From: a virus
Taxonomy: Duplodnaviria > Heunggongvirae > Uroviricota > Caudoviricetes
Virus record (IMG/VR): IMGVR_UViG_2541047866_000012
Length of the DNA stretch: 44,933 nt
Direction: 5' to 3' (one strand)
The position numbers and the translations under genes were made by a program. Shown here piece by piece: positions 1-28,277 of this stretch. Position 1 is the stretch's first letter. The number at the start of each line of letters is the position of its first letter. Below the pieces are notes generated by a model. The model was given only the letters and a program-made list of their open reading frames with translations, had not been told where the DNA came from and did not search any database.

Positions 1-90
1 TTGCCTCCCCCCCGTTGATGGGTAAAATAGCCGCAATTTTTCGTTTTCAACAAGCGCGGCGCGATGCCGCTTACTCAAGAAGAAAGAATT

Positions 91-165
91 ATGACGTTGT
101 CTCCTTATTTGCAAGAGGTGGCGAAGCGCCGCACTTTTGCCATTATTTCTCACCCCAATAATTAA
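91..165 (+). pseudogene. prfC: 5' fragment of host peptide chain release factor 3 gene, interrupted by prophage insertion
   Basis: Translates [22 protein letters not shown] then NN-stop; first 22 residues match my recollection of the E. coli RF3 N-terminus, with the P-loop truncated. Confidence 0.55.
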
Positions 166-319
166 GTCCAAATTAAAGCTCTTTCACTCTTTCAAAATCC
201 TTTCAGTTAATTGAGGTCGAGCTATATAACTCATTTAAATACATTTGGTTATGTGACTTCTTTAATTGAAAATTCTTTCATGTAACTTTAAATCGATCAG
301 GTTGCTTTCATCAAAAATC

Positions 320-376
320 TGTACATATGCTTGTACATAATGTACAAAGCAGCAGAGGTGTTTTGCGATTTGTACA
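320..376. promoter_or_regulatory. Four copies of palindromic hexamer TGTACA (320, 332, 341, 371) just upstream of int; candidate int operator or arm-type sites
   Basis: Directly visible repeats within 70 bp of the int start codon; CTTTCA also recurs about 5 times between 190 and 310. Confidence 0.3.
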
Positions 377-385
377 AGGTGAGTA

Positions 386-1600
386 ATGGCGCTGTCTGAT
401 GCGTGGTTGCGTTCAGTCGTTGGAAAGGAACGTGATAAGGTTTTGGTTAAATCCGATCGTGATGGTCTGTCTGTCAGAGTATCACCGAAAGGTCGCGTAG
501 TGTTCCAATATCGTTATCAATGGGCAGGGAAAGGTGAGCGTCTTGATATCGGAACTTACCCGGCAACTGGATTAAAAGAGGCCAGAGAAGAAGTTATTCG
601 TCTCCGTGGTGAACTCGAGTCAAACCGTAATCCACGATTGGTCAAGCAGGCTGAAAAACGAAAAGCTACTGAAGCCATGACGGTAGAGTCTGTGATCCGT
701 GCCTGGTATGAAGCATATTGTGTAAAAAATAAAAAAGGTTCTGAACAGATACTCCGCTCGTTTGAGCTGCACCTGTTCTCTAAAATCGGGAATATCCCTC
801 ACGATGCAGCTACATTGCATGATTGGTTAGAAGTCCTGGAGCCTCTTAGCACTAAGACTCCAGCAATAGCAGACCGATTGCTAATTAACGCAAAGCAGGC
901 CCATGTCTGGGCGTATAAGAGAAAGCTCATTGAAACTCGCCCGCTGTCGGATATCACGGGTAAAGATATGGATATCCGTAAAGGTCAGAAGAAACGGTTT
1001 CTGACACATGATGAAATTAAAATCCTTTATGCTGCGATCGATGGTTCTCGAATGGTTCCTAAATACCGGGCCTTCATTAAACTATTGCTTCATTTTGGTT
1101 GCCGTAGTTCAGAGCTAATTACCGCCAGGGTGGACGATTTTGATTTCATTAATAAAGTATGGACTGTACCACCAGAACGACATAAGACTGGGGAGATAAC
1201 AGGCGAACCGCTAAAGCGGCCCATTATTGAACCGGTTGAAGAGCTTATAAAGTACGCTATTTCTATGAACAATGGTTCCGATATGCTTTTTACTAAGGAA
1301 GGAAGCAGGGAACCCGTTGGTCGGACATCATTGCAGTCGCTGCCTTACAATTTAATGCAGTATGCATGGCGGCGTTTGGGTTATCAATTCCCTCATTGGT
1401 CTCTTCATGATTTGAGGCGAACAGCACGAACAAACTTTTCTGATCTTACTGCGCCTCATATTGCAGAAATTATGCTAGGTCATAAACTGCCAGGGGTATG
1501 GCAAGTTTATGACAAGAGCGATTATCTAGAAGAACAGCGTAAAGCCTACCAAGCGTGGTGGGAGAGGGTTGAATCGATCGTTACTTGTACTGGTTCATAA
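386..1600 (+). CDS. int: Tyrosine recombinase / phage integrase (P4-type)
   Basis: 404 aa; RBS AAGGTGAG before ATG; catalytic HDLRRTARTNF (HxxR box) and C-terminal GHKLPGVWQVYDKSDY with Tyr; N-terminal arm-binding-like domain. Confidence 0.93.
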   Translation: MALSDAWLRSVVGKERDKVLVKSDRDGLSVRVSPKGRVVFQYRYQWAGKGERLDIGTYPATGLKEAREEVIRLRGELESNRNPRLVKQAEKRKATEAMTVESVIRAWYEAYCVKNKKGSEQILRSFELHLFSKIGNIPHDAATLHDWLEVLEPLSTKTPAIADRLLINAKQAHVWAYKRKLIETRPLSDITGKDMDIRKGQKKRFLTHDEIKILYAAIDGSRMVPKYRAFIKLLLHFGCRSSELITARVDDFDFINKVWTVPPERHKTGEITGEPLKRPIIEPVEELIKYAISMNNGSDMLFTKEGSREPVGRTSLQSLPYNLMQYAWRRLGYQFPHWSLHDLRRTARTNFSDLTAPHIAEIMLGHKLPGVWQVYDKSDYLEEQRKAYQAWWERVESIVTCTGS

Positions 1601-1975
1601 TCGAAATGATATTTTGCATATCTAGTACGCAATAAAATATGACAGTCCGCTTTGAGCTGCGGGCATTGCTAGCAGCATTTTCTGTGAAGTAACGGGAGGT
1701 TGTTCAATATTGCCTCTGAAAAGGATAACCATTCAATTCTTCATTGAAAAAACTCATCGAAGATTTTATGGAGGGATGCAATTTATTTTGAGCGAATTTA
1801 ATTCATCACTAATGATCCTACATAGTTATTGCCTTGCTCACTAAAAGGTGAGATTTCATTAGCTCACCAACAATAATTAAATAGGATCATTAGCACTTTA
1901 TATCAGGCTATAATTTTAATAAATTACGTTATTTAAAGCCATTTTCTCCATCAAGTAATATCTTCATGCTAATGT

Positions 1976-2971
1976 TCACTTTTGTTTTAGCTTTATAATT
2001 TCTGATATCATAGTTGTTAGCTTTGAATCGGAAAGATTCTGCAGTCTATCTTTCTCAATAGAAACTGTAGTTTGTCCCTTTTCTAATATGAAATTTCTTT
2101 CTGTTTTCATTAAAAGCATTGCCAACTCTTTTATCATGTCTTCGTTCTTGAATTCTTGAGCATATTTTAGAGACATGACTTTCATCTCAATATTTGTGAT
2201 TTCATTCTGAAAATATTTGATTTCGTCAAACCCATTTTTATAGAGGCGTAGAAAAAAATAAGCAAACAATTCAACGACTATTACAAATGATAATTTAGGA
2301 AGGTGATGAATAAAAAATCCCACCCCATCCACAATGTCTGGCGCGCTGTAAAGAAAGTAAGCAAGAGATAATATCCCTGTCAACGCAATTATTGTTCCGA
2401 TTGCAAGGTTAAGCCCACCTCGTCGATTGAGTCTGTCTATTTCAGACTCTAATCTTAGAACCATATCAGTATGGAGTTTATGTAAGCTGTAGCTCTTCTT
2501 AAAATCAGATATATCGCTTTTTAGGCTGTTATCTGCCAGAAGTATTGTGTTTCCAATTATTCTCTTTTTTGCATCGGATATTAACTTCTCCCTTTCACTC
2601 TCTGTTATTTCAATGGAAACTCCGGAAGATGTTCTATTTTCAATTTCGCTCAATTTTTTATTTAGCTTAACTATTTCTTTGTGAAAAATATATCTCGTGT
2701 TTTCAATATCTCTACCACCAATTCCTTTGTTTAAATAAGAAGTCATTATTGCGACAAAAGAACCAACAAAAACTAGGGCAGTTGCTGTAAATAAAATAAA
2801 CTCTTTCTTCTCGTTTATTAAATTTACTATTGATGATGATTCCAGTTGAATGTCTGAAAGCGAAGTTTTAAGCACAAAATTCATCACAGGTGAAACCATG
2901 ATTATGGCAACAACTATAATAAATCCATATTTTTTTATAATGTAAATAAGAAGACCAAATAAATCTTTCAT
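1976..2971 (-). CDS. AT-rich predicted 4-TM membrane protein with coiled-coil segments, unknown function (cargo / moron)
   Basis: ORF 1976-2992 (TTG); first ATG at 2971 gives about 331 aa; hydrophobic helices near residues 12-36, 66-88, 194-216, 225-250; much more AT-rich than backbone; no enzymatic motif seen. Confidence 0.8.
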   Translation of the reverse strand: MKDLFGLLIYIIKKYGFIIVVAIIMVSPVMNFVLKTSLSDIQLESSSIVNLINEKKEFILFTATALVFVGSFVAIMTSYLNKGIGGRDIENTRYIFHKEIVKLNKKLSEIENRTSSGVSIEITESEREKLISDAKKRIIGNTILLADNSLKSDISDFKKSYSLHKLHTDMVLRLESEIDRLNRRGGLNLAIGTIIALTGILSLAYFLYSAPDIVDGVGFFIHHLPKLSFVIVVELFAYFFLRLYKNGFDEIKYFQNEITNIEMKVMSLKYAQEFKNEDMIKELAMLLMKTERNFILEKGQTTVSIEKDRLQNLSDSKLTTMISEIIKLKQK

Positions 2972-3344
2972 TTTATCTTTTACCTGAAACAAATTTTTAT
3001 TAAAGTAACTTAAAAAATGATTGATTGCAAGATTTACTATTGCTGTTCATTTTAAATTACTATACCCCCCTATGCATACATATAATCCCATAGGGGAGAA
3101 GTTTATTAGTTAGTTAAGTTGAAGGCTATACCTACAATCTAATTCCCCTCCAACCTAACATGCACAAGCGTCAACCTATCGGTAGTGATAATTTTATGAG
3201 GATACGTATAAACAAGATTCTGAGTTGCTCCTATTCATTAAGACAATACATTTTGTAACTTCTGCTTTTGGCTCAGGGTGGGGTGTGAGATTAGGTTTGG
3301 CTCTGTGCCATAGATGTGTCAGTTCACATCTGAGCTAATACACA

Positions 3345-3539
3345 TTACTCAATCACTCCAGCAAACCTATATATCTTGTGTGACGCCCATTTATTTGGGC
3401 ATGATTTAATATCAGGATCTGGAAAATCAGGCCTGTATTTCTGGCCAGTTCTCCGGTTTACGCTGTTCCAGCGAAGAACTGTCGATACTGAAACGCCACA
3501 GAAGTCGGCGACTTGTTTAGTTGTCATTAAGTTGTTCAT
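3345..3539 (-). CDS. xis: Excisionase / AlpA-type HTH DNA-binding protein
   Basis: 64 aa; motif TTKQVADFCGVSVSTVLRWN typical of AlpA/Xis HTH; start overlaps stop of upstream gene (TAATG). Confidence 0.75.
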   Translation of the reverse strand: MNNLMTTKQVADFCGVSVSTVLRWNSVNRRTGQKYRPDFPDPDIKSCPNKWASHKIYRFAGVIE

Positions 3540-4333
3540 TACTTCACCTCCTGCGGCGGTTCCGGTAGCGGCATCCAGTGGGTTACTTTCGATGCCGGTT
3601 CTTCCACATCGTCAGTAACTGCCCACCATTTGTTTCTCGACCAATCGTAATACCCTTCGAAGGTATCGCACTCAGTCCAGCCGTAAGACTTCCCCCAACA
3701 CCAAACATACTGTTTATCGTTCGGCATTCGCTCACTACAGCTTATCCAACCATCCGGAGTTACCGGAGAGTTGCCCGATAGCGCATTACGCAATCGCTCC
3801 AGCTTCACGTATTCCTGAACCCTGTTTCCGTCGCATGCCTGAAGCCATTGCGCAGCCTTTTGCGCATCAGTGTGAAAGGCACAAGTGCGACCGTCATCAA
3901 ATTGCATTTCGTAGAGGTCAGCAACTTGTTCAAACTGCGTGTGTTGTGACTTGTAAGTTTGGCTTACAGGTTCGGCACCATGAAGCATGGCGGCGCGGCA
4001 GGCGTTCCAGCCATCAACATAATCAAACGTATTGCTATCGTCTGGCTCGATTTCATCTGGCACTATCAGCACCGGCTGGACGGTGACATTGGCAAAGGCA
4101 GCACGCAACCCGGTTTTAATTTCTTCGATTTCATCAGAGCCAAGCGATGAGTCAGAAAGCGCATGGTGGAATGCGTAAGCCATGTCGTCGTTTACTGCCA
4201 CCGGCTCTGCTTCCAGTGATGCCAGCGCGATAAGCGCCAGCTCACGAATTTCACCGCCGTCTATATCGTCAATGTCATCGCGGCCAGAAATGTTAGCCAG
4301 CCATTGCAGTCGCTCTTTGGAAATAGTGATCAT
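3539..4333 (-). CDS. Phage early protein with C-terminal DUF551-like domain
   Basis: 264 aa; C-terminal WISCSERMPNDKQYVWCWG...THWMPLPEPP resembles DUF551; N-terminal part paralogous to ORF 4697-5053; ATGA overlap with upstream gene. Confidence 0.8.
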   Translation of the reverse strand: MITISKERLQWLANISGRDDIDDIDGGEIRELALIALASLEAEPVAVNDDMAYAFHHALSDSSLGSDEIEEIKTGLRAAFANVTVQPVLIVPDEIEPDDSNTFDYVDGWNACRAAMLHGAEPVSQTYKSQHTQFEQVADLYEMQFDDGRTCAFHTDAQKAAQWLQACDGNRVQEYVKLERLRNALSGNSPVTPDGWISCSERMPNDKQYVWCWGKSYGWTECDTFEGYYDWSRNKWWAVTDDVEEPASKVTHWMPLPEPPQEVK

Positions 4334-4695
4334 GCCGTAGCCCCTTCTTGATATTTTTCAAACCAGAACACAACCGGGTCAGATTTCATTTCAACCAATC
4401 CCATACGAACCAGCGCCTTGCCTTTCCCGGACGCAAGGAATTCACGACGACCATCACTGATAATTCGCCGATAGTCTTCCAGGCTACTGCAATGCTTGTG
4501 CAGATTGCATGGGTGGCATGCCGGAACCATGTTGGATATATCGTCACGCTCCTGGTGAAGCATATTTCCATCAAAACGAATGACCGGTTTTACATGATCT
4601 GCATGCCACTTTTCGCCAAGTTCGCAGCCGCAATAAGCGCAGCGACCACCGAACTTCATGCGCAGTTCTGCACGTTGTTTTTTCGTCAGTGCCAT
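4330..4695 (-). CDS. HNH endonuclease
   Basis: Start taken at MALTKK (ATG 4695); motifs CAYCG, HADHVKP, ACHPCNLHK fit an HNH zinc-finger nuclease. Confidence 0.85.
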   Translation of the reverse strand: MALTKKQRAELRMKFGGRCAYCGCELGEKWHADHVKPVIRFDGNMLHQERDDISNMVPACHPCNLHKHCSSLEDYRRIISDGRREFLASGKGKALVRMGLVEMKSDPVVFWFEKYQEGATA

Positions 4696-4696
4696 A

Positions 4697-5053
4697 TCAC
4701 TCTCCTTTCCCCTGAAGCATGGCTTCGCGGCAATCGTTCCATCCTTCAGCATAATCACTATACGCAAGAGGCCAACCTCTTATGTATTCACGCGGCAACT
4801 TATCAGGCACTACCAGCGCTGGCGGCGCGGTGTAAAGCTGGTGCGTTCCATCTGGCAGCGAGTGACCTACATACTCACCGACCCCGTCAACACACATGCA
4901 CCCATCCTCAATAATGCATTCCGCTACAGGCTCTGCCTCCAGCGATGCCAGCGCAATTTCATAAGCACGGCGCTCAATATTGTCTCTAACGTCCAGGCTA
5001 CCGATTCGCTCTTTGATTTCTTTAATCAGTTCCTTATCGGTGAAAGTGGTCAT
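4697..5053 (-). CDS. Phage early protein, paralogue of N-terminal domain of ORF 3539-4333
   Basis: 118 aa; shares IALASLEAEPVA and GWN(A/D)CR(A/E)AML motifs with ORF 3539-4333. Confidence 0.7.
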   Translation of the reverse strand: MTTFTDKELIKEIKERIGSLDVRDNIERRAYEIALASLEAEPVAECIIEDGCMCVDGVGEYVGHSLPDGTHQLYTAPPALVVPDKLPREYIRGWPLAYSDYAEGWNDCREAMLQGKGE

Positions 5054-5415
5054 TATGCCCCAGCCTCCGGTGCTTTTGGCATTACTGCCCAGTGAGTGAT
5101 ATTGACGTTTTCAAGGTCCCCGACCTGAAATGTCCACTGCCATTCTCCGGTTTCTTTTTGTCCCCAGGTGTACCAGAGAGAACGCCAGCCAATCAGCCAG
5201 CCTTCTCCGTTAATATCAAATAACAGAACACTTTCATTTGCTGGTGGAAGTTCAACTGACACTGGTATTACTTTGTTTTCCAGTGCCGCACATTTAGCTT
5301 CAAGCGCATCGAATTTACGTACCAGATACTCAGCATTTGTTTCATTCACTTTCAGATCTCGCGGTACACATTTCCCGCGAAGAAACCCTTCCATTTCGAA
5401 AACATTCATGCGCAT
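5053..5415 (-). CDS. Hypothetical phage early protein (DUF551-like C-terminus)
   Basis: 120 aa; C-terminal ITHWAVMPKAPEA resembles the THW..P.P end of ORF 3539-4333; operon-packed. Confidence 0.65.
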   Translation of the reverse strand: MRMNVFEMEGFLRGKCVPRDLKVNETNAEYLVRKFDALEAKCAALENKVIPVSVELPPANESVLLFDINGEGWLIGWRSLWYTWGQKETGEWQWTFQVGDLENVNITHWAVMPKAPEAGA

Positions 5416-5942
5416 TTGCGTAACTCCGATAACTCGTTAAAACGTTCCATAAACATCCCATAGGCATGGCCTGGCGACAGTGGAATAACTTTGAACATCT
5501 CTGTTGCCGGGATACCTTCCAGTACAGGCCAGAAAGAGCCATCATCAAGCCCGAGATCGCGGCGTTCGGTTGCCAGCATGATGAGATCGGCATATTTCAC
5601 AGGCGTGCTCATAACCGGGGGTAACCCGTATTTCTCACGGATTACGGCGTCTATTTTTTCTTCCATCCGTTTATAGTCAGGAAGAAGGCGTTTCAGTGGC
5701 GCGGGGATGTCCTGGCAATACGCTTCTGTTGCATCATGCATTAACGCTTCAAAAGCAAATTCCTGCGGCACCAGCTGGCTGCAAAGCACCGCATGCTGGG
5801 CGACGCTGTAGAAGTGTGAAAGATGTCCTGCAAAGCGACAGATATTTGAAAGGGAAACCGCGATATCGTTAATCACGATGTCGTCTTTATTTATCCTGTC
5901 ATAATAAAAATGCTTCCCGGAAAAAGTTTTAATAAATGACAT
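5406..5942 (-). CDS. HD-domain phosphohydrolase (YfdR-like, 5'-deoxynucleotidase-like)
   Basis: Start at MSFIKT (ATG 5942) with GGAG RBS; H..HD signature FAGHLSHFYSVAQHA...EALMHDATE. Confidence 0.8.
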   Translation of the reverse strand: MSFIKTFSGKHFYYDRINKDDIVINDIAVSLSNICRFAGHLSHFYSVAQHAVLCSQLVPQEFAFEALMHDATEAYCQDIPAPLKRLLPDYKRMEEKIDAVIREKYGLPPVMSTPVKYADLIMLATERRDLGLDDGSFWPVLEGIPATEMFKVIPLSPGHAYGMFMERFNELSELRKCA

Positions 5943-6069
5943 TTTGTTCTCCACGTATATGTGCTGCACCACGCTGAATTCTGGTAAAAGGAAGCCCTCA
6001 CCATCCGGTGATTATTGAGTTAATTACGTTTCCATAAATGCCCCCGCAGGGGCATTTGCAGTAATGAAA

Positions 6070-6894
6070 TCAGGCGGTGAAAGTACCAATAAAGGTTTCT
6101 ACTTTGCTGTCCTTGAATTTCTCAACAAGCAGATCACGAAATTCGTTAGCCATTTCCTCCTGCACTGCTTCCAGCTGAATAATGCGCAGAACCAGTACAG
6201 GACGATCGCCAGTGAGAATGCTGAGGCGTAATTTAAACGGACGTTCTTTCAGGCCTTCAAACGGAACGCATTTAAATTCAAATGCCACTGGCATAATGTC
6301 TTTGGTTTTCGCTTCGACAGACTCCATCAGAGAGCGTTTGCCGCTGAAGTCATTGTCTTCAAAATCAGCGGTCTGGTTTGCTTCAATCGTGATTTTACGG
6401 ACCGCCGCAGCCGCTTTTGTTGCCTGAATGGCGTCACCATTAGCATCAAAGCCCACAAGGTAGTCGGCCCAGTCTTCAATCCATTCTGCCAGTGACTTCT
6501 GGGAGTTACGCTCGCCATTAACAGACAACAGAGCAGAGAACGGTGCTGTCTTTTTCAGTTTGAGAGTGGCGGTGTTATCTGCGTGACCTGGTTCATCAAT
6601 AGTACCCAGATTAAGCACACTGACAGCACGCATATTATCAGCATCGATAAAGCAGCGGGTGCCTTCATCTGCAAGATCTTTAGAATAACGGGTAAAGTCA
6701 TCGATGCTGGCAGTGGAAAGCGCACCACGGAAACGGAAGCGATTTAAATTAAATTTTTCCAGATCATGAATGCGGAAATTCTCAGGCAATGCCACAGCAT
6801 CGGCACCAATCTTACTGATAATTTCATTAACACCCTGAGCAGAAATAAGGGCATGGATTTGATTAATTGCGGTTGCGTCTAAGTTCTGAGACAT
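6070..6894 (-). CDS. YfdQ-like phage protein (DUF2303-like)
   Basis: 274 aa; size and sequence recalled as CPS-53 YfdQ-like; sits in a yfdP-yfdT-like gene order. Confidence 0.75.
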
Positions 6895-6959
6895 AATAAG
6901 TCCTCACTATATAAAGATATTCAGTGATGAGATAAATAATCAGTTAATTAAGAACGATA

Positions 6960-7322
6960 TTAATGACCTGCTGCGCGGAGTTTTCCGTCAGGTTCACCGG
7001 CAAGAGTCAGTAATTGTCCCTGGTCTTCCTGCAGAATAGTCAGGCGACCACCGCGATTGACATACATCGGCGTTTCGGTGGTGTCTTCTTCGGAAATTTT
7101 CCCGCGGTTAGTTGGGCGAACATATGAGAGTTTGTGTTTGATTTTCACACGGTTCTCATCAAACGGTTCGATTTCCAGATTGAGTGAGACCTTCCCTTTG
7201 GTTTTCGTGTTCATCACACCGGAAGCGACTTCACTTAGAACTGCGCCGATTTTTGTTTCAAATACGCCGCCGTCCAGCTCCCCGATAAATGCCTGCACAT
7301 CAGTACTGCGTTCACTAGCCAT
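6960..7322 (-). CDS. Hypothetical phage early protein (first gene of leftward operon)
   Basis: Start at MASERS (ATG 7322) preceded by GAGGAG RBS; 120 aa; the upstream extension in the ORF track lacks an RBS. Confidence 0.7.
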   Translation of the reverse strand: MASERSTDVQAFIGELDGGVFETKIGAVLSEVASGVMNTKTKGKVSLNLEIEPFDENRVKIKHKLSYVRPTNRGKISEEDTTETPMYVNRGGRLTILQEDQGQLLTLAGEPDGKLRAAGH

Positions 7323-8000
7323 TTTGCTGCTCCTCATCATATCGACCCTGCAATGTCGGTTAGTTTCTCCACAAAACAGAGAAGAACACCTGCGGTGGTA
7401 GCCGCCCGGATGGATTGGGTTATGAGCCCGTCGTCCGGTGATGTTCTTCTCTGTTTTGTAAAAAGAGCGGTACCAGCCGGAAGCAAGTGTACAAACTGGT
7501 ACCGCCAAAGCAGTGGCTGTTGTGGTGACCGGTGCTGATCTCCGGCTTGCGGTTATTTCAGACTCTCACGGGCATTTAATTGCCCCGCCGAACAGCTCTT
7601 TTCCGCAATAGCTGCAATGTCTTTCGCGCATCAGCCTGCGCATTCACCACAACGCTGAGAGCACTTAGCCAGTTACGGCACCACACTTTGTCGCGGTTCC
7701 ATAAATGCCCTCATCGTTGCACCCTGGTCTCTTCCCAGGTGTCAAACCGAACCGCCACGCTGGTTAGGCGTCTTATCAGCATCATCATTGACTTGCACAT
7801 TCCGGCTACCTGGTTTGTTTGCCCGAGCAAGGAGTGGATTGTCCCCTTTAACGTCCCCAGACCGCTAACGACGCATGTGCCATACGCCGTGTTACAACCA
7901 AATTTTGTTAGTACCTTGTTTGTTTGTCTGGAAAGAAAGATAAAATGAAGTTGCGCATTATGCAAGTGTTTTTGTTGCGAGATATGCAATTTAATGGGTA

Positions 8001-8024
8001 ATGAAAAGCCACCTTCGGGTGGCT
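8001..8024 (-). terminator. Intrinsic terminator downstream of cI
   Basis: Perfect hairpin AGCCACC-TTCG-GGTGGCT followed on the minus strand by TTTTCA; sits 20 bp after the cI stop. Confidence 0.7.
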
Positions 8025-8044
8025 AATTGATGAGGAGGTAAGGG

Positions 8045-8737
8045 TTAATTGTGTCGCTTAAGGGTTTGTGACTGGCTGATTAAGACCTTTCCAAAGACCA
8101 TAAACCGGTGTTCATTTTCGCTGGTAATTCCCCATTCACGGTAAATCTGGTTATCAGAAATCACCAGTAGTTTGTCAGGTATCATTTGCAGTCGTTTGAC
8201 ATAAATTTTATCATCAAAACCAAATACATAGATACCATCTCCATCAAACTGATTGATACTGACATCAACGAAGATGAGATCTCCTGGCTCAATGGTTGGA
8301 CACATACTGTCCCCACGAACGTTGATAACTTTAATGTGATTGGCTGGCCGTCCGCCAAACATCGATACAGCATTATCAGTTCTGTATTCAATGGCATGAA
8401 TCACATCAATGACATCACCGCCCTGGATAAGGCCATTTCCCGCACTGGCACTGACATCCAGCATTTCAATACGGAATACATCCTTCACCTGCGCAACATC
8501 CTCACTAATACTGTTTTTACATACAGTATTACTTTTGAAGTCTGAGGTAAAGAGATCAGCAATATCAACACCTAAGCTCCTGGCAATATTACTCAGGGCT
8601 TGTTCAGTGAATTGTTTCTGCTTACCTGTTTCCAGGCGTGAGATATTCGCCGCATCCACTCCTATTGCTTCAGCGAGATCGGCGATTTTCATGTTCTTCG
8701 CCTGGCGAAGTTGTCTGACTCGGTTTCCTATGTTCAT
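8045..8737 (-). CDS. cI: CI-type phage repressor (HTH_XRE + S24 LexA-like peptidase domain)
   Basis: 230 aa; N-terminal HTH (IADLAEAIGVDAANISRLETGK); C-terminal S24 motifs (GDSM, VKRL); divergent from cro across an operator region. Confidence 0.93.
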   Translation of the reverse strand: MNIGNRVRQLRQAKNMKIADLAEAIGVDAANISRLETGKQKQFTEQALSNIARSLGVDIADLFTSDFKSNTVCKNSISEDVAQVKDVFRIEMLDVSASAGNGLIQGGDVIDVIHAIEYRTDNAVSMFGGRPANHIKVINVRGDSMCPTIEPGDLIFVDVSINQFDGDGIYVFGFDDKIYVKRLQMIPDKLLVISDNQIYREWGITSENEHRFMVFGKVLISQSQTLKRHN

Positions 8738-8757
8738 GCGTTTATTACATTTCTTTA

Positions 8758-8820
8758 TTGCGCGTTAAGCAAATCAACTTGCGCAAAATATTTGCGTGAA
8801 ATAATATGCTCATCACGCAA
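8758..8820. promoter_or_regulatory. OR operator region: two 29-bp sites with inverted TTGCG(T/C)G...C(A/G)CGCAA arms, overlapping PR (-35 TTGCGC 8779-8784, -10 TAATAT 8802-8807)
   Basis: Inverted repeat TTGCGTGA-N13-TCACGCAA at 8792-8820 and TTGCGCG...CTTGCGCAA at 8758-8786; 17-bp promoter spacer; between divergent cI and cro. Confidence 0.7.
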
Positions 8821-8834
8821 TATGTGGAGGTCAT

Positions 8835-9095
8835 ATGCAATCACCATTACGGAATGTGCGTAAGGCGCACGGATTTACTTTGCAGCATGTTGCTGCTGGC
8901 GTTCAGGTCAATCCAGCGACGCTGAGTCGTATTGAAAGACTGGAACAAATTCCATCTATCGATCTTGCAGAACGTCTGGCCAATTTTTTTAAGGGTGAAA
9001 TCAGCGAAATGCAGATTCTTTATCCGGCACGTTTTCAATCTAGCCAAAACCAGAATGGGTTTAAACCACAGGAACAGGAGGTAAGCCGTGGGTAA
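8835..9095 (+). CDS. cro: Cro-like HTH regulator
   Basis: 86 aa; RBS GGAGG; HTH FTLQHVAAGVQVNPATLSRIE; first gene rightward from OR. Confidence 0.85.
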   Translation: MQSPLRNVRKAHGFTLQHVAAGVQVNPATLSRIERLEQIPSIDLAERLANFFKGEISEMQILYPARFQSSQNQNGFKPQEQEVSRG

Positions 9096-9639
9096 TCATC
9101 ACTGGAAAGTGGAAAAACAGCCTGAGTGGTACGTGAAAGCTGTCAGAAAAACTATCGCGGCGTTGCCGGGGGGTTACGCTGAAGCTGCTGAGTGGCTGGA
9201 TGTAACAGAGAACGCTTTATTCAACCGCCTTCGTGCAGATGGCGATCAGATTTTCCCGCTGGGATGGGCAATGATTTTACAGCGTGCTGCTGGCACTCAC
9301 TACATTGCGGATGCTGTCGCACAGTCTGCTGGTGGGGTGTTTGTATCGCTTCCTGAAATTGAGGAAGTAGAGAACGCAGATATAAACCAGCGCCTGCTGG
9401 AAGTCATCGAACAGATCGGGAGTTACTCAAAGCAGATTCGTTCGGCAATCGAAGATGGGGTAGTGGAGCCACACGAGCAGACAGCAATTAATGATGAATT
9501 GTATCTGTCAATTTCGAAGCTCCAGGAGCATGCGGCACTGGTCTACAAAATTTTCTGCGCTCCAGAAAAGAGTGACGCCCGCGAGTGTGCAGCTCCGGGC
9601 GTCGTGGCGTTTTGTGTCTGTGGAGAAACTAACGCATGA
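9088..9639 (+). CDS. CII-like early regulatory protein (186-type CII / CP76-like, tentative)
   Basis: 183 aa; GTG start with AGGAGG RBS; position after cro; family assignment from memory only. Confidence 0.55.
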   Translation: MGNHHWKVEKQPEWYVKAVRKTIAALPGGYAEAAEWLDVTENALFNRLRADGDQIFPLGWAMILQRAAGTHYIADAVAQSAGGVFVSLPEIEEVENADINQRLLEVIEQIGSYSKQIRSAIEDGVVEPHEQTAINDELYLSISKLQEHAALVYKIFCAPEKSDARECAAPGVVAFCVCGETNA

Positions 9640-10472
9640 ACAGTTTAACGGCAAATAACCGTTTGTCGCAACAGCTGGTGGTCAGTGTCGCTGCACACCT
9701 GTTGTTACGGCATGAATGCAGATTACCAAATCACCTGGCTGTAAGTAACCACAGAGAACTTTACCTGACTGTGGGGGGCGAGTTGTGCAGGAACTTAACC
9801 GCTGGTTTCGTGACGGAAGAGGACTTTATGTTCATGTTATTCGTTGGGAGCCAGAAACACAGCGCGTTATCTATCTTCGCAAAGACTACCCGCATGAGTG
9901 CTTTAGTCCTTTGTGGAAATTCAGGCGTGATTTTGTTGAGTGTGAAGGACCACCAGCACATTGATTCTGCCATTCCGGGACGTTACACTGTTCAGGCACC
10001 TTATAAAGCGGGTGCCGGGCGTGGCGCCCCGGAATTGCATACGGCGACAATTGGCGCGTTAGCGTCTTTTTTGTTGCTACAACTCAGCTATACCCAAATT
10101 ATGGTGGGCTGGGTGGGGGCACCGAAAGGTGCGCCGGTTTCCGTATGCGCCGGTTACGCCAACCCTGCTCAGTTCACCACCAGCGAAATTGGCGTTTCCG
10201 GTGGTGGAAGTTATCCATTGCATACGGAGGCTGCCATCATGGCTACTGTCCCAGCCCTCTCTCGTCTGAATGATGACGACTTACATAAACTCAGTTATGT
10301 AACAACTGCACTACGTGCTCTGCGCAAGGTAACTCTTTCGGATCCGCAGGCACATCAGGTTCTGGTAGAAACCCTTCTTAACTTGCAGGCTGAACGTATT
10401 CGTCTGGCGGATAAGGCTAATTTTCATATTCACCGTCTCCTTAATATCAGCGGAGGGCATCGTCATGCTTAA
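9636..10472 (+). CDS. Hypothetical protein (frame uncertain in 5' third)
   Basis: 278 aa; start and stop overlap neighbours; 3' half shows purine-first / pyrimidine-third codon bias; an alternative frame at 9785-9963 also reads protein-like. Confidence 0.5.
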   Translation: MNSLTANNRLSQQLVVSVAAHLLLRHECRLPNHLAVSNHRELYLTVGGELCRNLTAGFVTEEDFMFMLFVGSQKHSALSIFAKTTRMSALVLCGNSGVILLSVKDHQHIDSAIPGRYTVQAPYKAGAGRGAPELHTATIGALASFLLLQLSYTQIMVGWVGAPKGAPVSVCAGYANPAQFTTSEIGVSGGGSYPLHTEAAIMATVPALSRLNDDDLHKLSYVTTALRALRKVTLSDPQAHQVLVETLLNLQAERIRLADKANFHIHRLLNISGGHRHA

Positions 10473-10701
10473 TCCGTTGATTCTCAATATTTGCCGTTTT
10501 CTTCAGCGTAAAAAAACATCAATTCCTACAGTTGGGCAGTGGTACACCACGCCTGCAGGGCATGTTCTACGTGTTAGCCTGGTTGACCGTGAATGTCAGA
10601 AGGTGATTTGTGAACCGCTGGGCCGTAATTACCGCGTCAGTATGCCGCTTATAGCCTTTTGCTCCGGAAAAATGTTTAAGCGTCTGGGAGGTGTGGCGTG
10701 A
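10465..10701 (+). CDS. Hypothetical small protein
   Basis: 78 aa; GGAGGG RBS; start and stop overlap neighbours. Confidence 0.5.
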   Translation: MLNPLILNICRFLQRKKTSIPTVGQWYTTPAGHVLRVSLVDRECQKVICEPLGRNYRVSMPLIAFCSGKMFKRLGGVA

Positions 10702-10997
10702 ACTGTTTTCAGTTTGTGTGCGGATGTGCTTTCGATAACCCGATTCAGCGCCTGATTATGTTGCGTGTTTTGATGTCGGGTTCTTCAGACGGTGAAGGCG
10801 AGAGAGTTATTGATCATCAGGTGCTTGCTGATTTCTGCTGTTGTTCTAAGCAAGCGATATTCAGGGAAACCCTGGCACTGGAAAGAGCTGGTTATCTTCA
10901 TATCCGAAAAATTGCAACGCTTACTATTGATGCAAAAGCCAGACTACAACCTGCGCGTGGCTACACAATTCTCATGCTGCGGAAGGAGGTTGTATGA
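10698..10997 (+). CDS. Hypothetical protein, possible HTH
   Basis: 99 aa; GTG start with GGAGG RBS 7 nt upstream; overlapping stops and starts. Confidence 0.55.
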   Translation: MNCFQFVCGCAFDNPIQRLIMLRVLMSGSSDGEGERVIDHQVLADFCCCSKQAIFRETLALERAGYLHIRKIATLTIDAKARLQPARGYTILMLRKEVV

Positions 10998-11989
10998 GCC
11001 GTTACGCCCCCACACCGGAAGTTATGGCTATTGGTCAAATTAATATTTCCGGCAATGTTACACCTGCGACCTGGTGGAAATATATTCGACTACCCAGTGG
11101 GCGTCCGGATGCGACGGCTATCGCTCTGCTTTCAGAGATCGTTTACTGGTACCGCCCGACAGAGGTCAGGGATGAGCACACCGGAGCGTTGCTGGGATAT
11201 CGCAAGCGTTTTCAGGGCGACAAACTGCAAAGAAGCTACCAGGCGTTTGCTGAGCAGTTTGGTTTCGGGAAAAGGGAAACCGCAGATGCGCTGAAGCGTC
11301 TGCGCGATGCAGGGTTTATTACTCTGGATTTACGCACGGTGGAAATGCTCGATGGGGTGAAATGCAGCAATATTTTGTTTGTCGGGATCAACCCACAGGC
11401 AATTGCGGCCATCACCACACCTTCTTCTGTTTCGCCAGAAAGTAACAGCAATAATGCAATCAGCGATACAGCTATTACGTTAAAACGGAACACCCCCCGA
11501 CGTCATAACGGAACAGGGGATACGCCGAATGTTGATACAAATACAGAGATTACTACAGAGATTACTACAGAGATTACAACGGAGACTAAAAACACTATTG
11601 GCGCATCCGCTGACGCGTCTGCACCAGCGCGTTCTGCCAGACAGGAATATTCACCGGAATTTGAACAGGCCTGGCAGGAATATCCCAAACGTGCTGGTGG
11701 TAATTCAAAATCCGCCGCTTTTAAAGCCTGGAAAGCCCGAATCAGGGAAGGTGTGACACCCGAAACCATGCTCGACGGTGTGAAACGCTATGCCGCCTGG
11801 GTGCGTGTCTCTGGAAATACCGGTACCCAGTTCGTGAAGCAGGCGTCGACGTTCTTTGGTCCGGATCGTCATTTCGAAGAATCCTGGGAAGTTCCTGCAG
11901 TATCTGCAGCCAGACGCGAGGACCCGTACTTCAAAGCCAGTTACGACAACGTGGACTACAGCCAGATCCCGGCAGGATTCAGGGGGTGA
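10994..11989 (+). CDS. Replication initiator (O-like replisome organiser) with internal iterons
   Basis: 331 aa; N-terminal replisome-organiser-like region; internal EITTEITTEITTE encoded by 12-bp tandem repeats. Confidence 0.75.
   Translation: MSRYAPTPEVMAIGQINISGNVTPATWWKYIRLPSGRPDATAIALLSEIVYWYRPTEVRDEHTGALLGYRKRFQGDKLQRSYQAFAEQFGFGKRETADALKRLRDAGFITLDLRTVEMLDGVKCSNILFVGINPQAIAAITTPSSVSPESNSNNAISDTAITLKRNTPRRHNGTGDTPNVDTNTEITTEITTEITTETKNTIGASADASAPARSARQEYSPEFEQAWQEYPKRAGGNSKSAAFKAWKARIREGVTPETMLDGVKRYAAWVRVSGNTGTQFVKQASTFFGPDRHFEESWEVPAVSAARREDPYFKASYDNVDYSQIPAGFRG
11543..11587 (+). repeat. About 3.5 tandem copies of 12-bp unit ACAGAGATTACT inside the replication gene; candidate ori iterons
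   Basis: Repeats directly visible; lambda ori likewise lies inside gene O. Confidence 0.45.
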
Positions 11990-11991
11990 TT

Positions 11992-12480
11992 ATGAGTCTT
12001 TTGAATGAAGTTCAGAAATTCATTGAAGCCCATCCGGGGTGTACTTCTGGAGACATTGCGGATGCTTTTGCTGGTTACTCACGGCAGCGCGTTCTGCAGT
12101 CAGCAAGCAAGTTACGTCAGAGTGGGCGTGTGGCTCACCGTTGTGAAGGAGATACACGCAGACATTTCCCGCGCCTGACTGAGAGAGCGCAGGAGCCGGA
12201 ACCACAATCTGTTCGTGAAACCAGACCTGTGCGCAATTTCTATGTCGGCACTAACGACCCCCGGGTGATTTTGTGCCTGACCCGCCTGGCTGAAGAACTG
12301 GAGTCCAGGGGCTTATTCCGTCGAGCTGCAACGGTGTGGATGGAGGCATTCCGTGAAAGCCACTCCCAGCCAGAACGAAACAATTTTCTGGCGCATCGTG
12401 AGCGGTGCTTACGGAAAAGCAGCAAGCGCGCTGCATCGGGTGAAGAGTGGTATCTGTCAGGGAATTACGTGGGGGCTTAA
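11992..12480 (+). CDS. PerC-family-like transcriptional regulator with N-terminal winged-helix-like region (tentative)
   Basis: About 162 aa from ATG 11992 (AGGGGG RBS); C-terminal LAEELESRGLFRRAATVWMEAF resembles the PerC motif. Confidence 0.55.
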   Translation: MSLLNEVQKFIEAHPGCTSGDIADAFAGYSRQRVLQSASKLRQSGRVAHRCEGDTRRHFPRLTERAQEPEPQSVRETRPVRNFYVGTNDPRVILCLTRLAEELESRGLFRRAATVWMEAFRESHSQPERNNFLAHRERCLRKSSKRAASGEEWYLSGNYVGA

Positions 12481-13133
12481 TGAGTAATAAATATTGCCAG
12501 GCGCTGGTGGAGCTGCGGAACAAACCAGCCCATGAACTGAAGGAAGTGGGCGATCAGTGGCGCACGCCGGACAACATTTTCTGGGGAATTAACACCCTGT
12601 TTGGCCCGTTTGTTCTGGATCTGTTTACTGATGGTGATAACGCCAAATGTGCCGCTTATTACACTGCGGAAGACAACGCGCTGGCGCATGACTGGTCAGA
12701 ACGTCTTGCGGAGCTTAAAGGTGCTGCCTTTGGTAATCCCCCGTACAGCCGCGCGAGTCAGCATGAGGGGCAATACATCACCGGCATGCGTTACATCATG
12801 AAACATGCCAGTGCTATGCGTGATAAAGGCGGGCGCTATGTTTTCCTGATCAAAGCTGCCACCAGCGAAGTTTGGTGGCCGGAAGATGCAGACCATATTG
12901 CTTTTATTCGCGGGCGTATTGGTTTTGAACTGCCAGCCTGGTTTATCCCGAAGGACGAGAAGCAGGTGCCGACAGGCGCTTTCTTCGCTGGTGCTATTGC
13001 TGTTTTCGACAAGACCTGGAAGGGACCGGCAATCAGCTACATCGGGCGCGATGAACTTGAGGCATGTGGTGAGGCCTTTCTGGCGCAGGTTCGCCAGCAG
13101 GCGGAAAAACTGGTCAGGGAGATGGCGGCATGA
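12480..13133 (+). CDS. Phage N6-adenine DNA methyltransferase (Dam-type, orphan)
   Basis: 217 aa; catalytic FGNPPYS (NPPY) motif; TAATG overlap with upstream gene; no adjacent restriction enzyme. Confidence 0.85.
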   Translation: MSNKYCQALVELRNKPAHELKEVGDQWRTPDNIFWGINTLFGPFVLDLFTDGDNAKCAAYYTAEDNALAHDWSERLAELKGAAFGNPPYSRASQHEGQYITGMRYIMKHASAMRDKGGRYVFLIKAATSEVWWPEDADHIAFIRGRIGFELPAWFIPKDEKQVPTGAFFAGAIAVFDKTWKGPAISYIGRDELEACGEAFLAQVRQQAEKLVREMAA

Positions 13134-13456
13134 CGACATTAACTCAATGCCAGCAGCAGGTGCTGGATATGCTGATTTCTTACCAGAAAGAACGTGGCTT
13201 CCCGCCAACCAATCAGGAGGTGGCAACCATGCTGGGATACCGTTCAGTGAATGCAGCGGTGGAGCATCTTCGCGCACTGGAGAAAAAAGGCGTCATCACG
13301 ATAAAGCGTGGTGTGGCCCGGGGGATCACGCTTCATACCGCGGTGAAGGACGACGACAGCGAGGCGGTCGGGATTATCCGCTCACTGCTTGCCGGTGAGG
13401 AAAACGCAAGGCTGTGTGCAACCCACTGGTTACATGAGAGAGGCCTGAAAGTATGA
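13130..13456 (+). CDS. LexA-like DNA-binding protein (N-terminal domain only, no S24 peptidase)
   Basis: 108 aa; LTQCQQQVLDMLISYQKERGFPPTNQEVATMLGYRSVNAAVEHLRALEKKGVI closely resembles the LexA N-terminal winged helix. Confidence 0.75.
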   Translation: MTTLTQCQQQVLDMLISYQKERGFPPTNQEVATMLGYRSVNAAVEHLRALEKKGVITIKRGVARGITLHTAVKDDDSEAVGIIRSLLAGEENARLCATHWLHERGLKV

Positions 13457-13842
13457 AGCTGATCCTGCCTTTTCCGCCCAGCGTGAACACGTACTGGCGA
13501 CACCCCAACAAAGGGGCGTTTGCAGGTAAGAGCCTGATAAGCGCGGCGGGGCGAAAATTCCAGAGCGCGGCGTGTGCAGCAATAGTTGAGCAGTTACGTC
13601 GTCTGCCAAAACCAACGTCGGCACCTGCTTCAGTGGAGATCGTGTTGTTTCCTCCGGATAACCGGATCCGCGATCTGGACAACTATAACAAGGCGCTGTT
13701 TGACGCCTTGACCCACGCGGGTGTGTGGGAAGACGACAGTCAGGTGAAAAGAATGCTGGTTGAGTGGGGACCGGTTATCCCGAAAGGGAAGGTCGAGATC
13801 ACTATCAGTAAGTATGAGAAACCGGCGGGTGCAGCCGCCTGA
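13453..13842 (+). CDS. rusA: Holliday junction resolvase RusA
   Basis: 129 aa; RusA-like motifs incl. DLDNYNKALFDALT. Confidence 0.9.
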   Translation: MKLILPFPPSVNTYWRHPNKGAFAGKSLISAAGRKFQSAACAAIVEQLRRLPKPTSAPASVEIVLFPPDNRIRDLDNYNKALFDALTHAGVWEDDSQVKRMLVEWGPVIPKGKVEITISKYEKPAGAAA

Positions 13843-13861
13843 TTAAGAGGAGAAACGAAGT

Positions 13862-14659
13862 ATGAATAATCTGATGGTCATTGATGGTATTGAAGTTCGT
13901 CGTGATGCTTATGGTCGTTACAGCCTGAACGATCTTCACAGGGCTGCCGGTTCTCTGGATAAGCATAAGCCTGCATTCTGGCTCCGCAATGAGCAAACTG
14001 AACATTTAATAAGCGAGTTGCAGATTTGCAACTCGGTCAATATAGAGCCAGTTAACGTTATTCGTGGCGGAAATAACCAGGGGACGTATGTCTGCAAAGA
14101 ACTGGTGTATGCCTATGCAATGTGGATAAGCCCGTCATTCCATCTTAAGGTGATCCGTACTTTCGATATGGTAACCAGCGTACCGGAAAAATTATCCGGG
14201 CAGGCTGCTGACAAGATGCAGGCTGGTGTGATTCTGCTGGACTTTATGCGCCGGGAATTAAATCTGTCTAACTCTTCAGTGCTTGGTGCCTGTCAGAAAC
14301 TCCAGGAGGCTGTTGGCTTACCGAATCTGGCACCGCGCTATGCCATTGATGCTCCTGCTGACGCGCCTGATGGCTCAAGCCGCCCCACGCTGTCACTGAG
14401 TGCACTGCTGAAGCAGTATGGTATCCGCCTGACAGCTAATCAGGCATATCACCAGATGGCGAAGCTGGGGATCGTTGAACAACGTGAACGATACAGCCGT
14501 ACCGAGATTAATAACATCAAAAAATTCTGGTCGCTGACGGCGAAAGGCTGCATGTTCGGCAAGAACATCACCAGTCCGGCAAATCCGCGCGAGACGCAGC
14601 CACACTTCTTCGAATCCCGATTCCCTGAGCTGTTAAAGCTGCTCGATACCGTTCATTGA
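13862..14659 (+). CDS. KilA-N domain protein (antirepressor-like)
   Basis: 265 aa; N-terminal KilA-N signature (IEVRRDAYGRYSLNDLHRAAG...KPAFWLRNEQTEHLI...VYAYAMWISPSFHLKV). Confidence 0.85.
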   Translation: MNNLMVIDGIEVRRDAYGRYSLNDLHRAAGSLDKHKPAFWLRNEQTEHLISELQICNSVNIEPVNVIRGGNNQGTYVCKELVYAYAMWISPSFHLKVIRTFDMVTSVPEKLSGQAADKMQAGVILLDFMRRELNLSNSSVLGACQKLQEAVGLPNLAPRYAIDAPADAPDGSSRPTLSLSALLKQYGIRLTANQAYHQMAKLGIVEQRERYSRTEINNIKKFWSLTAKGCMFGKNITSPANPRETQPHFFESRFPELLKLLDTVH

Positions 14660-14660
14660 G

Positions 14661-15656
14661 GTGACCGTGAGAGCACTACTGACCCCTGAAATTGCCCCGC
14701 GTATGGGGATCGTATTGTTCAGACCCGGTTCAGAGCTGATGCCCCTGTTTATGCAGGGGCGTGTCCTGCTGGAGCCTGAGCCGGAACGTTATTCATCTTT
14801 CGCCAGTGGTGCCGTTCCGGCGGCATCACAACCGCTGGCGGATGATCCTGCCGTTCGGGCCGTGTTCCGCAATGAGGCAGTTATTCGTCGTGCGGGTGGC
14901 GTGGAATGTCTTGAAAGCTGGTTACTTCGTGAAAAGGGCTGTCAGTGGCCTCATTCCGACTGGCACAGCGAGAACATGACCACAATGCGACACGCTCCGG
15001 GCGCAATCCGTCTGTGCTGGCACTGCGATAACCAGCTGCGCGATCAGTTCACGGAACGGCTGGAATCAATGGCAACGGATAACTGTGCCCGCTGGGTGTT
15101 GTCTGTTGTGCGTCGGGATCTCGGTTTTGATGACAGTCACGTTGTGACAATGCCGGAACTGTGCTGGTGGCTGATTCGTAATGACCTGGCGGATGCCTTA
15201 CCGGAAAGTGCAGCCCGTAAGGCACTGAGATTACCAAAGCCTGTTGTGCCGTCTGTCACCCGGGAAAGTGACCTTGTGCCTTCGGTTCCTGCCACCAGCA
15301 TCATCCAGGATAAAGCGAAAAAGGTGCTGGCGCTGAAAGTGGATCCGGAGTCGCCGGAGTCTTATATGTTACGCCCAAAACGTCGCCGCTGGGTTAATGA
15401 AAAGTACACGCGCTGGGTTAAGACACAGCCGTGTGCATGTTGTGGAAAGCCCGCTGATGATCCCCACCACCTGATAGGTCACGGTCAGGGTGGAATGGGA
15501 ACAAAAGCGCATGACCTTTTTGTGTTGCCTTTGTGCAGAAAGCATCACGACGAGCTGCATGCGGATACCGTGGCATTTGAAGAGAAGTATGGCTCCCAGC
15601 TGGAGCTGATATTTCGTTTTATCGATCGTGCGCTGGCAATTGGCGTGCTGGCCTGA
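14661..15656 (+). CDS. DUF968-family phage protein with C-terminal HNH-like Cys/His motif
   Basis: 331 aa; C-terminal CACCGKP...DPHHLIGHG...CRKHHDELH; typical position between rusA and Q. Confidence 0.8.
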
Positions 15657-15673
15657 TTTTGTGGAGAAAGTTG

Positions 15674-16039
15674 ATGCGTGATATTCAAATGGTTCTTGAA
15701 CATTGGGGGGCATGGGTGGCAAATAATCACGAGGATGTCACCTGGTCGTCTATTGCTGCAGGATTTAAAGGACTAATCCCTTCAAAAGTAAAATCCCGCC
15801 CGCAATGTTGTGACGATGATGCGATGATCATTTGTGGGTGCATGGCTCGCTTGAAAAAGAACAACAGCGATTTGCACGATTTATTAGTGGATTATTATGT
15901 AGGTGGTATGACGTTTATGGCGCTTGCCCGTAAACATGGGCGTTCTGATTGCTGGGTTGGGCGTTTATTGCAAAAGGCTGAAGGTGTAGTTGATGGCATG
16001 TTAATGATGTTAGAAATTGAGCTAGAGATGGATCGTTAG
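15674..16039 (+). CDS. Q: Late-gene antiterminator Q (82/21-type)
   Basis: 121 aa from ATG 15674 (GGAG RBS); [34 protein letters not shown]...CGCMARLKK matches recalled Q-family sequences. Confidence 0.85.
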
Positions 16040-16081
16040 AAGACCTCTTATTGAGGGGGTAATTGAATCAGTTTAATGTGT

Positions 16082-16112
16082 GGGGAGTCGATTTATTCTC
16101 CCCATTTTATTT
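16082..16112. terminator. Bidirectional intrinsic terminator between convergent Q and lipoprotein genes
   Basis: Hairpin GGGGAG-N10-CTCCCC followed by ATTTTATTT; lies between Q stop (16039) and lipoprotein stop (16124). Confidence 0.65.
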
Positions 16113-16123
16113 AATTAATTTAC

Positions 16124-16570
16124 TTAAGGTTTTAATTCATCAAGACGTTGTTGGATAGTGTTTTTGCTTGCGTTGTCTGTTATAGCCATTTGTTGTACTT
16201 GCCCCATTGCCATTTGAGTTTCCATCCACATATCGGCCCACACTTTTGTATCGTTATTAACTTGAGCGATAGTAAATCTGACTTTTGATACCGGGGTTGT
16301 TGAATAGGCATTGCCGATTAACATTTGTCCAAAAACGGCAGAGCCGCCTTCCAGTTCTTTACCACATATAACACTGCTGTTATCCGCGTTGTAAATTATC
16401 AACCCTCTACTATTGCAGTAATTCACAAGGGCATCTTTGACTTTATCTTTTGTCGTATTTTGATAAACCCCCTCAGGTTTTCCTGATTGAGTTTTCTTTA
16501 TCAATGGTACGGAAGAAGTACAACCTGAAATGATAGTTGCGCTAAGTAATAGTACAGTTATTTTATTCAT
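16124..16570 (-). CDS. AT-rich predicted lipoprotein (moron), unknown function
   Basis: 148 aa; signal peptide with lipobox ISGC (Cys17); opposite strand to flanking phage genes; lower G+C by eye. Confidence 0.8.
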   Translation of the reverse strand: MNKITVLLLSATIISGCTSSVPLIKKTQSGKPEGVYQNTTKDKVKDALVNYCNSRGLIIYNADNSSVICGKELEGGSAVFGQMLIGNAYSTTPVSKVRFTIAQVNNDTKVWADMWMETQMAMGQVQQMAITDNASKNTIQQRLDELKP

Positions 16571-16840
16571 GTTTCTTATCCATTGTTAAGGGCATACCCA
16601 CACAATTATTTTTATTGGAGATGAATAATCAACCGTTTACAATCGTAAAAAATCAAATATGCTGTTAAGAGTGGTTACTTCGCCACACAACTTAAACCCG
16701 CCGCTGAGCGGTTTTTTTGTACCTGTAAACTTGGTGCAGTACAGTAAACACGCTGGTGGTCGTGAATACTGACTTTTTATCTTGCTGGCTTTTTAGACAA
16801 GAGTTATTGGTATGTCATGTTAATCAGAAGGGAAAAAGAC

Positions 16841-17044
16841 ATGCTAAAACAGCAAGATATGACAGAAACCGCCGCCGCAGTCCTTCATTTCTTACCTGCT
16901 GACAAGTGGGTAACGCCACGCATGATGACGAGAACTACCGGAGTAAGCGAAGCCCAGTGCCAGTTAATACTGACTCAGTTAGTTCTGGCGGGTCTGGCGA
17001 AGGATAACGGCGGGTACGGGAATAAATTCAGACGCTGCCAGTAA
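16841..17044 (+). CDS. Hypothetical small protein (uncertain)
   Basis: About 67 aa from ATG 16841; weak RBS; no recognisable motif. Confidence 0.35.
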   Translation: MLKQQDMTETAAAVLHFLPADKWVTPRMMTRTTGVSEAQCQLILTQLVLAGLAKDNGGYGNKFRRCQ

Positions 17045-17194
17045 TGGCGGTTTCCTGCTGTGAAAATGGGCGGCTGGTGGGTGTTGGTAGCACCTGCCAG
17101 CCATTCGCTCATGCTTACTGGTCACAAGCGAACCACGGCCCACTGCTTTAGCGCAAAAGCAGAGTGAGCCTACCAGAGTTACGCTTACTGATCC

Positions 17195-18247: not shown

Positions 18248-18314
18248 TTTGGTGGCCACGTCAGGTGGCCTTTTTATTTCCATTACACAGCACCCGCATC
18301 TGCGAGGTGGGGTT

Positions 18315-28267: not shown

Positions 28268-28277
28268 GGAGGTGGTA

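Follow-up and report, generated by a model that had tools for sequence, protein, structure and literature searches.

A lambdoid prophage inserted 22 codons into E. coli prfC, and the phage-borne start joined in frame to the displaced gene in its nearest relatives

The stretch of viral DNA analysed here (44,933 nucleotides, referred to below as the window) opens with the left attachment junction, attL, of a complete lambdoid prophage that is inserted 22 codons into prfC, the E. coli gene for release factor 3 (RF3). Integration displaces the native start of the gene, and a surrogate start carried by the phage in all likelihood rebuilds prfC in frame at the right junction, attR. The probability of this reading is put at about 90%. 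The arrangement itself has already been published, and nothing in the finding is new.

The proposed mechanism involves several steps. A P4-like integrase of the IntSXT type, encoded at 386-1600, would recombine the phage attachment site, attP, with a core of 11-14 bp (ATTATTTCTCACCC) within prfC. The P arm of attP would carry the surrogate prfC start, made up of a ribosome-binding region and 21 codons. Upon integration, the native promoter, the native ribosome-binding site (RBS), and codons 1-22 would be parted from the remainder of prfC and would stay at attL as a 24-codon remnant. At attR, the phage-borne start would be joined in frame to prfC codon 23, and the lysogen would then encode a full-length RF3 of 528 amino acids. 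The site falls in a strongly conserved part of a gene that is itself conserved, which explains why relatives of the integrase use it across the Gamma- and Betaproteobacteria.

Evidence for the left junction is provided by alignment with an uninterrupted yjjG-prfC locus. Positions 1-155 of the window match it with 100% identity (E = 3e-74), which is far beyond chance, and a match to this segment is present in 5,425 of 5,426 complete E. coli genomes; among the matches listed, those in non-lysogens are annotated as prfC. The initial annotation had read positions 91-165 as the first 22 residues of RF3 followed by Asn-Asn-stop. This is exact: the ATG is at 91, codons 1-22 cover 91-156, and AAT AAT TAA covers 157-165. 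The same annotation had the gene split at its 5' end and AT-rich phage DNA beyond, and both statements agree with the alignment, in which native DNA stops after 155 and phage DNA follows, with GC content dropping from 49% (1-155) to 31% (156-385).

The next base after 155 is G in K-12-type DNA (CCG GAC GCC GGT AAG) and C in the window (CCC AAT AAT TAA), so the break falls between 155 and 156. Codon 22 is thus CCC in the window, compared with CCG in the native gene. As this change is synonymous, a count of 22 native residues is right for the protein, whereas identity in the DNA stops one base sooner.

The host spacer at 1-90 also holds the native ribosome-binding region, and in the lysogen this spacer is left upstream of the remnant reading frame and the integrase gene. 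The 24-codon remnant is a pseudogene fragment, and RefSeq labels its equivalent in MS7163 as an incomplete CDS without a C-terminus. Table 1 lists the features of the window.

Table 1. Features of the attL region and prophage, in window coordinates.
Feature	Position	Strand	Basis or remark
Host yjjG-prfC intergenic spacer	1..90	+	100% identity to uninterrupted loci; non-coding
Promoter-like site for native prfC, TTGCCT-16-TAAAAT	1-28	+	Consensus match only
Truncated prfC' remnant	91..165	+	22 native RF3 codons, then Asn-Asn-stop from phage DNA
att identity core ATTATTTCTCACCC	142..155	.	attB/attL/attR alignment; codons Ile18-Ile19-Ser20-His21-Pro22
P' arm, AT-rich (31% GC), non-coding, from core to int	156..385	+	Near-identical to the core-int stretch of Ayreon attP
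Lambdoid prophage body	156..44933	.	Runs about 0.9 kb past the window to attR in nearest relatives
Four TGTACA motifs (320, 332, 341, 371), proposed arm-type integrase sites	320..376	.	Motif count
Tyrosine integrase, P4-like / IntSXT type, 404 aa	386..1600	+	Pfam domains; transcribed away from attL
Candidate excisionase / recombination directionality factor, 64-aa helix-turn-helix	3345..3539	-	Weak assignment; sub-threshold HTH_17/MerR and Gifsy-1 Xis matches

The core repeat can be identified by comparing attL with the two types of attR found in related lysogens. It is 14 bp long against attR of the MS7163 type or of Stx phages, and 11 bp long (145-155) against attR of the UTI89 type, which has ATC at codon 18. 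Since the UTI89-type core spans only these 11 bp, strand exchange must fall within 145-155. The same 14 bp are annotated as a "duplication due to insertion" in records of Stx2c and Stx1a phages, and they are identical in LC727876. The consensus attP core of the SXT/R391 elements is the 17-bp sequence ATcATcTCtCACCCtGA (PMC9058013). The core described here overlaps with it, the 17 bp overlapping 142-158 of the window in attB terms. In the protein, the Ile-Ile-Ser-His-Pro codons of the core sit just before the GTPase P-loop of RF3.

These comparisons also bear on whether the 75 prfC-like bases mark a junction at all. Similar bases could arise by chance or from a chimeric assembly, or they could be a fragment carried by the phage, with native prfC located elsewhere. 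Free phages do hold a prfC-like mini-ORF in attP, which could resemble such a fragment. However, the copy in the phage is plainly another sequence, one codon shorter and changed at about one third of its nucleotides, and the perfectly matching segment of the window includes 90 bp of host spacer between yjjG and prfC. The same junction, with prfC' running into the same integrase gene, occurs in 701 independent genomes among the 5,426 complete ones of E. coli, and the attR junction in 699. Each lysogen has a single attL and a single attR; a search for a second, native copy of prfC in them found none, each junction query matching a single place per record. A source other than a junction is therefore extremely improbable, and the 75 bases are best read as the 5' end of prfC itself, separated from its gene at a duplicated core.

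The window stops about 0.9 kb short of attR, and the right junction was read from its closest relatives. The initial annotation had expected attR to lie outside the window, and either the phage to supply a replacement promoter and N-terminus there or prfC to be inactivated. In UTI89, NU14, and other close relatives, attR is indeed found 915 bp past the window end, with 21 phage codons in frame with prfC codon 23. The last base of the window corresponds in UTI89 to the start codon of a gene on the minus strand; next come a dinI-like gene and then prfC. The attR of this strain reads ATG ACA AGC CTT TTG GCC GCA GAG GTA GCG AAA AGA AGA ACC TTT GCA ATC ATT TCT CAC CCG GAC GCC... In these relatives the hybrid reading frame begins with ATGACAAGCCTTTTGGCCGCAGAG... 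and runs on in frame from prfC codon 23 (DAGKTT...).

The in-frame fusion was seen in UTI89, MS7163, RM13745, EC11, and 36C_1_fosA3, and the surrogate start also in attP of free phages. Each of these lysogens (5/5 examined, strains of different origin) has an intact hybrid reading frame of 528 codons, which RefSeq annotates as intact prfC; native RF3 has 529 residues. From residue 8 onward, the hybrid has the same sequence as the E. coli RF3 that has been crystallised (2H5E). It differs from native RF3 only in about the first 7 residues (2-8), and these vary between species.

The surrogate prfC start is phage-borne: it is present in attP of the phages Ayreon, cdtI, and 2H10. In Ayreon, attP is intact and lies just upstream of int, the order of elements being TGTACA repeats, RBS-like stretch, mini-ORF, AT-rich arm, and int. 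A query with Ayreon attP finds the same attP at 96% identity in cdtI and 2H10. The RBS-like stretch of the surrogate resembles the native one (AAGAGACAACAATTATG compared with AAGAAGAAAGAATTATG).

Between Val10 and Ile18, the surrogate and the host gene differ at 9 of 27 nucleotides (33%), and every change is synonymous. The pairs of host and phage codons are GTG/GTA, AAG/AAA, CGC CGC/AGA AGA, ACT/ACC, GCC/GCA, and ATT/ATC, and the peptide VAKRRTFAI is kept. When sets of nine substitutions were drawn at random, none out of 300,000 kept the peptide. In the surrogate start of the SXT/R391 element R997, the same KRRTFAII motif is encoded by yet another codon set, the third. The synonymous divergence between phage and host shows the phage-borne start to be under purifying selection. 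Divergence restricted to synonymous positions would be expected of a segment that lysogens translate as part of RF3. The divergence of the surrogate in nucleotides would also restrict its homology with the host to the short core.

A simpler possibility is that the prophage inactivates prfC, the in-frame phage start being silent and a non-essential RF3 being lost in lysogens. Bobay et al. 2013 class prfC among the genes "disrupted" by prophages. Ogura et al. 2007 (PMC2323221) state that prfC is not essential and that its transcription and translation in lysogens of this kind are not known. A simple scan of the P arm for plus-strand sigma-70 sites matching at 9/12 or better also found no consensus promoter ahead of the surrogate ATG. 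Set against this are the peptide kept despite one third of its nucleotides having changed, the RBS-like stretch retained in the surrogate, and the intact downstream gene in all five lysogens, which come from unrelated strains. The distantly related SXT/R391 elements also bring a surrogate start of their own, and SXT, a family member of R997, reportedly has a new promoter. The same sigma-70 scan likewise found no promoter in R997, so the negative scan is uninformative, given that a member of this family has a reported promoter. Loss of RF3 by inactivation is accordingly unlikely, and restoration of the gene by the surrogate start is the preferred reading.

In the preferred reading, the promoter of the hybrid gene should lie within the conserved P arm of about 170 bp, because the dinI-like gene upstream is divergent. 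Candidates picked by eye in the P arm are weak and are not relied on; one of them is CATAAT, which lies 17 nt before the ATG and has a poor -35. The 528-residue protein is predicted to be active, and prfC at attR is very probably functional.

The layout allows a further idea, which is tentative and on balance doubtful: that a reciprocal swap of promoters couples the levels of RF3 and integrase to the state of integration. In the circular phage, the signals of the P arm (surrogate promoter, RBS, and mini-ORF) would lie directly upstream of int and in the same orientation. A search of the P' arm at 156-385 for a terminator-like site found none, and the P-arm signals could thus drive int in the excised form only. 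Once integrated, they would drive prfC, and the host prfC promoter would now lie upstream of the remnant reading frame and int. As GTACA pairs flank the surrogate start and the start of int, the integrase could feed back on both genes.

The integrase carries three Pfam domains above threshold, Arm-DNA-bind_3 (PF13356), Phage_int_M (PF22022), and Phage_integrase (PF00589). In an alignment of 18 integrases, R240, R344, H366, and Y375 do not vary, and conservation of H341 is 90% or more; these five are the presumed catalytic residues. The gene and its flanks are 95-97% identical in DNA to records of Stx phages and Ayreon, and 33 phage records match 96% or more of positions 156-1700 of the window, with identities of 95-99%. 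Smyshlyaev et al. 2021 (PMC8138268) group the integrases of cdt1-phage and SXT in a single prfC-targeting "SXT cluster" of the IntSXT subgroup. The present integrase can be assigned to that cluster by its domains, by the near-identity of its gene to the int region of cdtI, by its full-length homology with the R997 integrase, and by the prfC' fragment upstream.

A prfC' fragment lies directly upstream of int both here and in 16 related loci of other genera (Pantoea, Serratia, Pseudomonas, Marinobacterium, Halomonas, Microbulbifer, Methylomonas, Methylibium, Variovorax, and others). In those 16 loci, the fragment ends at the same codon, int begins 226-264 bp downstream of it, and the integrases are 49-84% identical to the one described here. 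Taken more widely, integrases of 49-99% identity occur beside prfC' fragments in at least a dozen genera of the Gamma- and Betaproteobacteria, and homologues of 30-48% identity mostly have no prfC fragment within 5 kb. Target specificity thus appears to be a property of one clade.

Short repeats near both junctions suggest where the integrase may bind. Four of the nine TGTACA motifs in the 44.9-kb window fall within 320-376, directly upstream of int, where 0.08 would be expected, and the first two (320 and 332) are 12 bp apart. The P arm at attR has four more, of which two directly precede the surrogate ATG. At the equivalent position, 15 of the 16 prfC-linked loci of other genera have a GTACA pair exactly 12 bp apart, and R997 has such pairs in both arms. 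The TGTACA and GTACA repeats are putative arm-binding sites of the integrase. The literature that could be searched gave no specific description of arm-type sites for integrases of the SXT cluster.

[quoted passage not shown] With the overlapping 17-bp core and a homologous integrase, this might suggest that the window is an integrative and conjugative element (ICE) of that family, or some other non-phage island. The homology with the R997 integrase is full-length (E = 1e-90), but identity is only 39%, and the family is defined by Int proteins that are near-identical, at about 99% (PMC2791158). The integrase of the window is a distinct lineage in that respect, and the surrogate N-terminus of the ICEs has another sequence. 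In R997, int faces the element end and converges with xis, whereas int is directed away from attL here. The candidate excisionase at 3345-3539 gave no alignment with the R997 protein in the Xis position. The conjugative backbone (tra genes, mobI, setCD/setR) is absent from the window, which has a full lambdoid gene set and phage-like content when compared with the ends of R997, and related free phage genomes exist. An ICE or island is very improbable on this evidence; the element is read as a prophage.

Other phages at this site are well documented. Stx1 and Cdt-I phages in prfC were published in 2007, and Stx1a and Stx2c phages at prfC have been catalogued in STEC CC119. The Stx1 phage described by Ogura et al. 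2007 (PMC2323221) gives RF3 a short stretch of altered sequence at its N-terminus and does away with the native promoter and RBS. The SXT/R391 ICEs were reported at the same 17-bp site in 1999. The lambdoid phages of prfC include cdtI (AB285204 / NC_009514), Ayreon, 2H10, and the Stx1a and Stx2c phages of STEC O103 and CC119. They resemble the present prophage in int and P' arm (95-97% DNA identity), in the 14-bp duplication, in the surrogate start, and in the lambda-like late region. They differ in their mosaic cargo and early region: neither stx nor cdt genes occur in the window, and AT-rich reading frames at both of its ends are uncharacterised. The prophage of UTI89 and NU14 is the closest, two replaced segments apart.

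Two further systems can be set beside this one. Elements that target dusA (for example IMEVchUSA3) have another target gene and an integrase of another cluster. Phage 21 and e14 replace the 3' end of icd. They integrate inside a coding gene, carry a substitute for the displaced segment, and preserve the length of the reading frame (PMC3603311). No promoter or translation start is needed in icd, whereas in prfC the 5' end is replaced together with its expression signals.

We argue that "restored with altered start" describes prfC in these lysogens better than "disrupted". For annotation, this means that a 528-residue prfC at attR ought not to be counted among prophage-disrupted genes, where one comparative survey or more has placed it. 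The arrangement is found in about 13% of complete E. coli genomes, including those with Stx- and Cdt-converting phages, and SXT/R391 resistance elements use the same site. It is a clean example of an integrase that uses a conserved coding sequence as a portable landing site and carries a replacement for the part of the gene that it displaces.

The gene content of the window was taken from the annotation of the collinear prophages in UTI89 and MS7163. It includes integrase, repressor-type regulators, Rha, RusA, a Q antiterminator, lysis genes, terminase, portal, and a protease-capsid fusion, as well as Lom, tail fibres, and tail genes resembling those of lambda. Except in two replaced segments, the window is collinear with the prophage that the uropathogenic strains UTI89 and NU14 carry, and identity is 99.4-99.8%. 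Its last 3.9 kb (41000-44933) are 100% identical in UTI89, NU14, and others. This had suggested full identity with UTI89, which is ruled out by the figure of 99.4-99.8% for the collinear parts and by the two replaced segments. Among complete RefSeq E. coli genomes, no 100% match was found for window positions 1-25000; the best matches cover 94% of this stretch at 99.6% identity. The segments that do not align to UTI89, at 10036-11595 and 38170-38681, are mosaic modules in the early/regulatory region and around the J-lom junction.

Local variation is also seen in the early-left region. An uninterrupted reading frame of 264 codons lies at 3539-4333 on the minus strand and overlaps 3539-3778, which in UTI89 is a partial DUF551 pseudogene according to RefSeq. 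MS7163 has a DUF551 gene of 206 codons in its place.

Several AT-rich reading frames were found near the ends of the prophage. A 338-codon frame on the minus strand (1976-2992) lies in an island of 31% GC that separates int from the early genes; the frame carries a hypothetical annotation and is conserved in MS7163 and UTI89. Neither Pfam nor NCBIfam gave a family for it, and its PADLOC match to "2TM effector" is insignificant (E = 0.0075). It may be a moron or a gene of the abortive-infection type. Two more frames on the minus strand, at 43042-43800 (252 aa) and 43899-44933 (344 aa), lie between the tail-fibre genes and the dinI/attR end, and GC content is 34% over 43001-44000. Searches of the AT-rich cargo frames against Pfam, NCBIfam, and PADLOC found nothing significant: the two frames have no Pfam match, and the PADLOC match of the longer one is insignificant. 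In related prfC prophages, the same slot holds an anti-phage reverse transcriptase with a TIR domain (EC11 and 36C_1_fosA3) or a YadA-like gene (RM13745). It looks like a slot for variable cargo or defence, with the two frames as candidate defence genes.

Just upstream of the minus-strand dinI-like gene beside attR, about 0.7 kb past the window end in UTI89, lies the sequence TACTGTGTTTGTATACAGTA. It fits the LexA-box pattern, CTGT-N8-ACAG, and a promoter-like site, TTGACA-18-AAAAAT, is found on the same strand. Together, they point to a putative SOS-regulated gene divergent from the surrogate prfC start.
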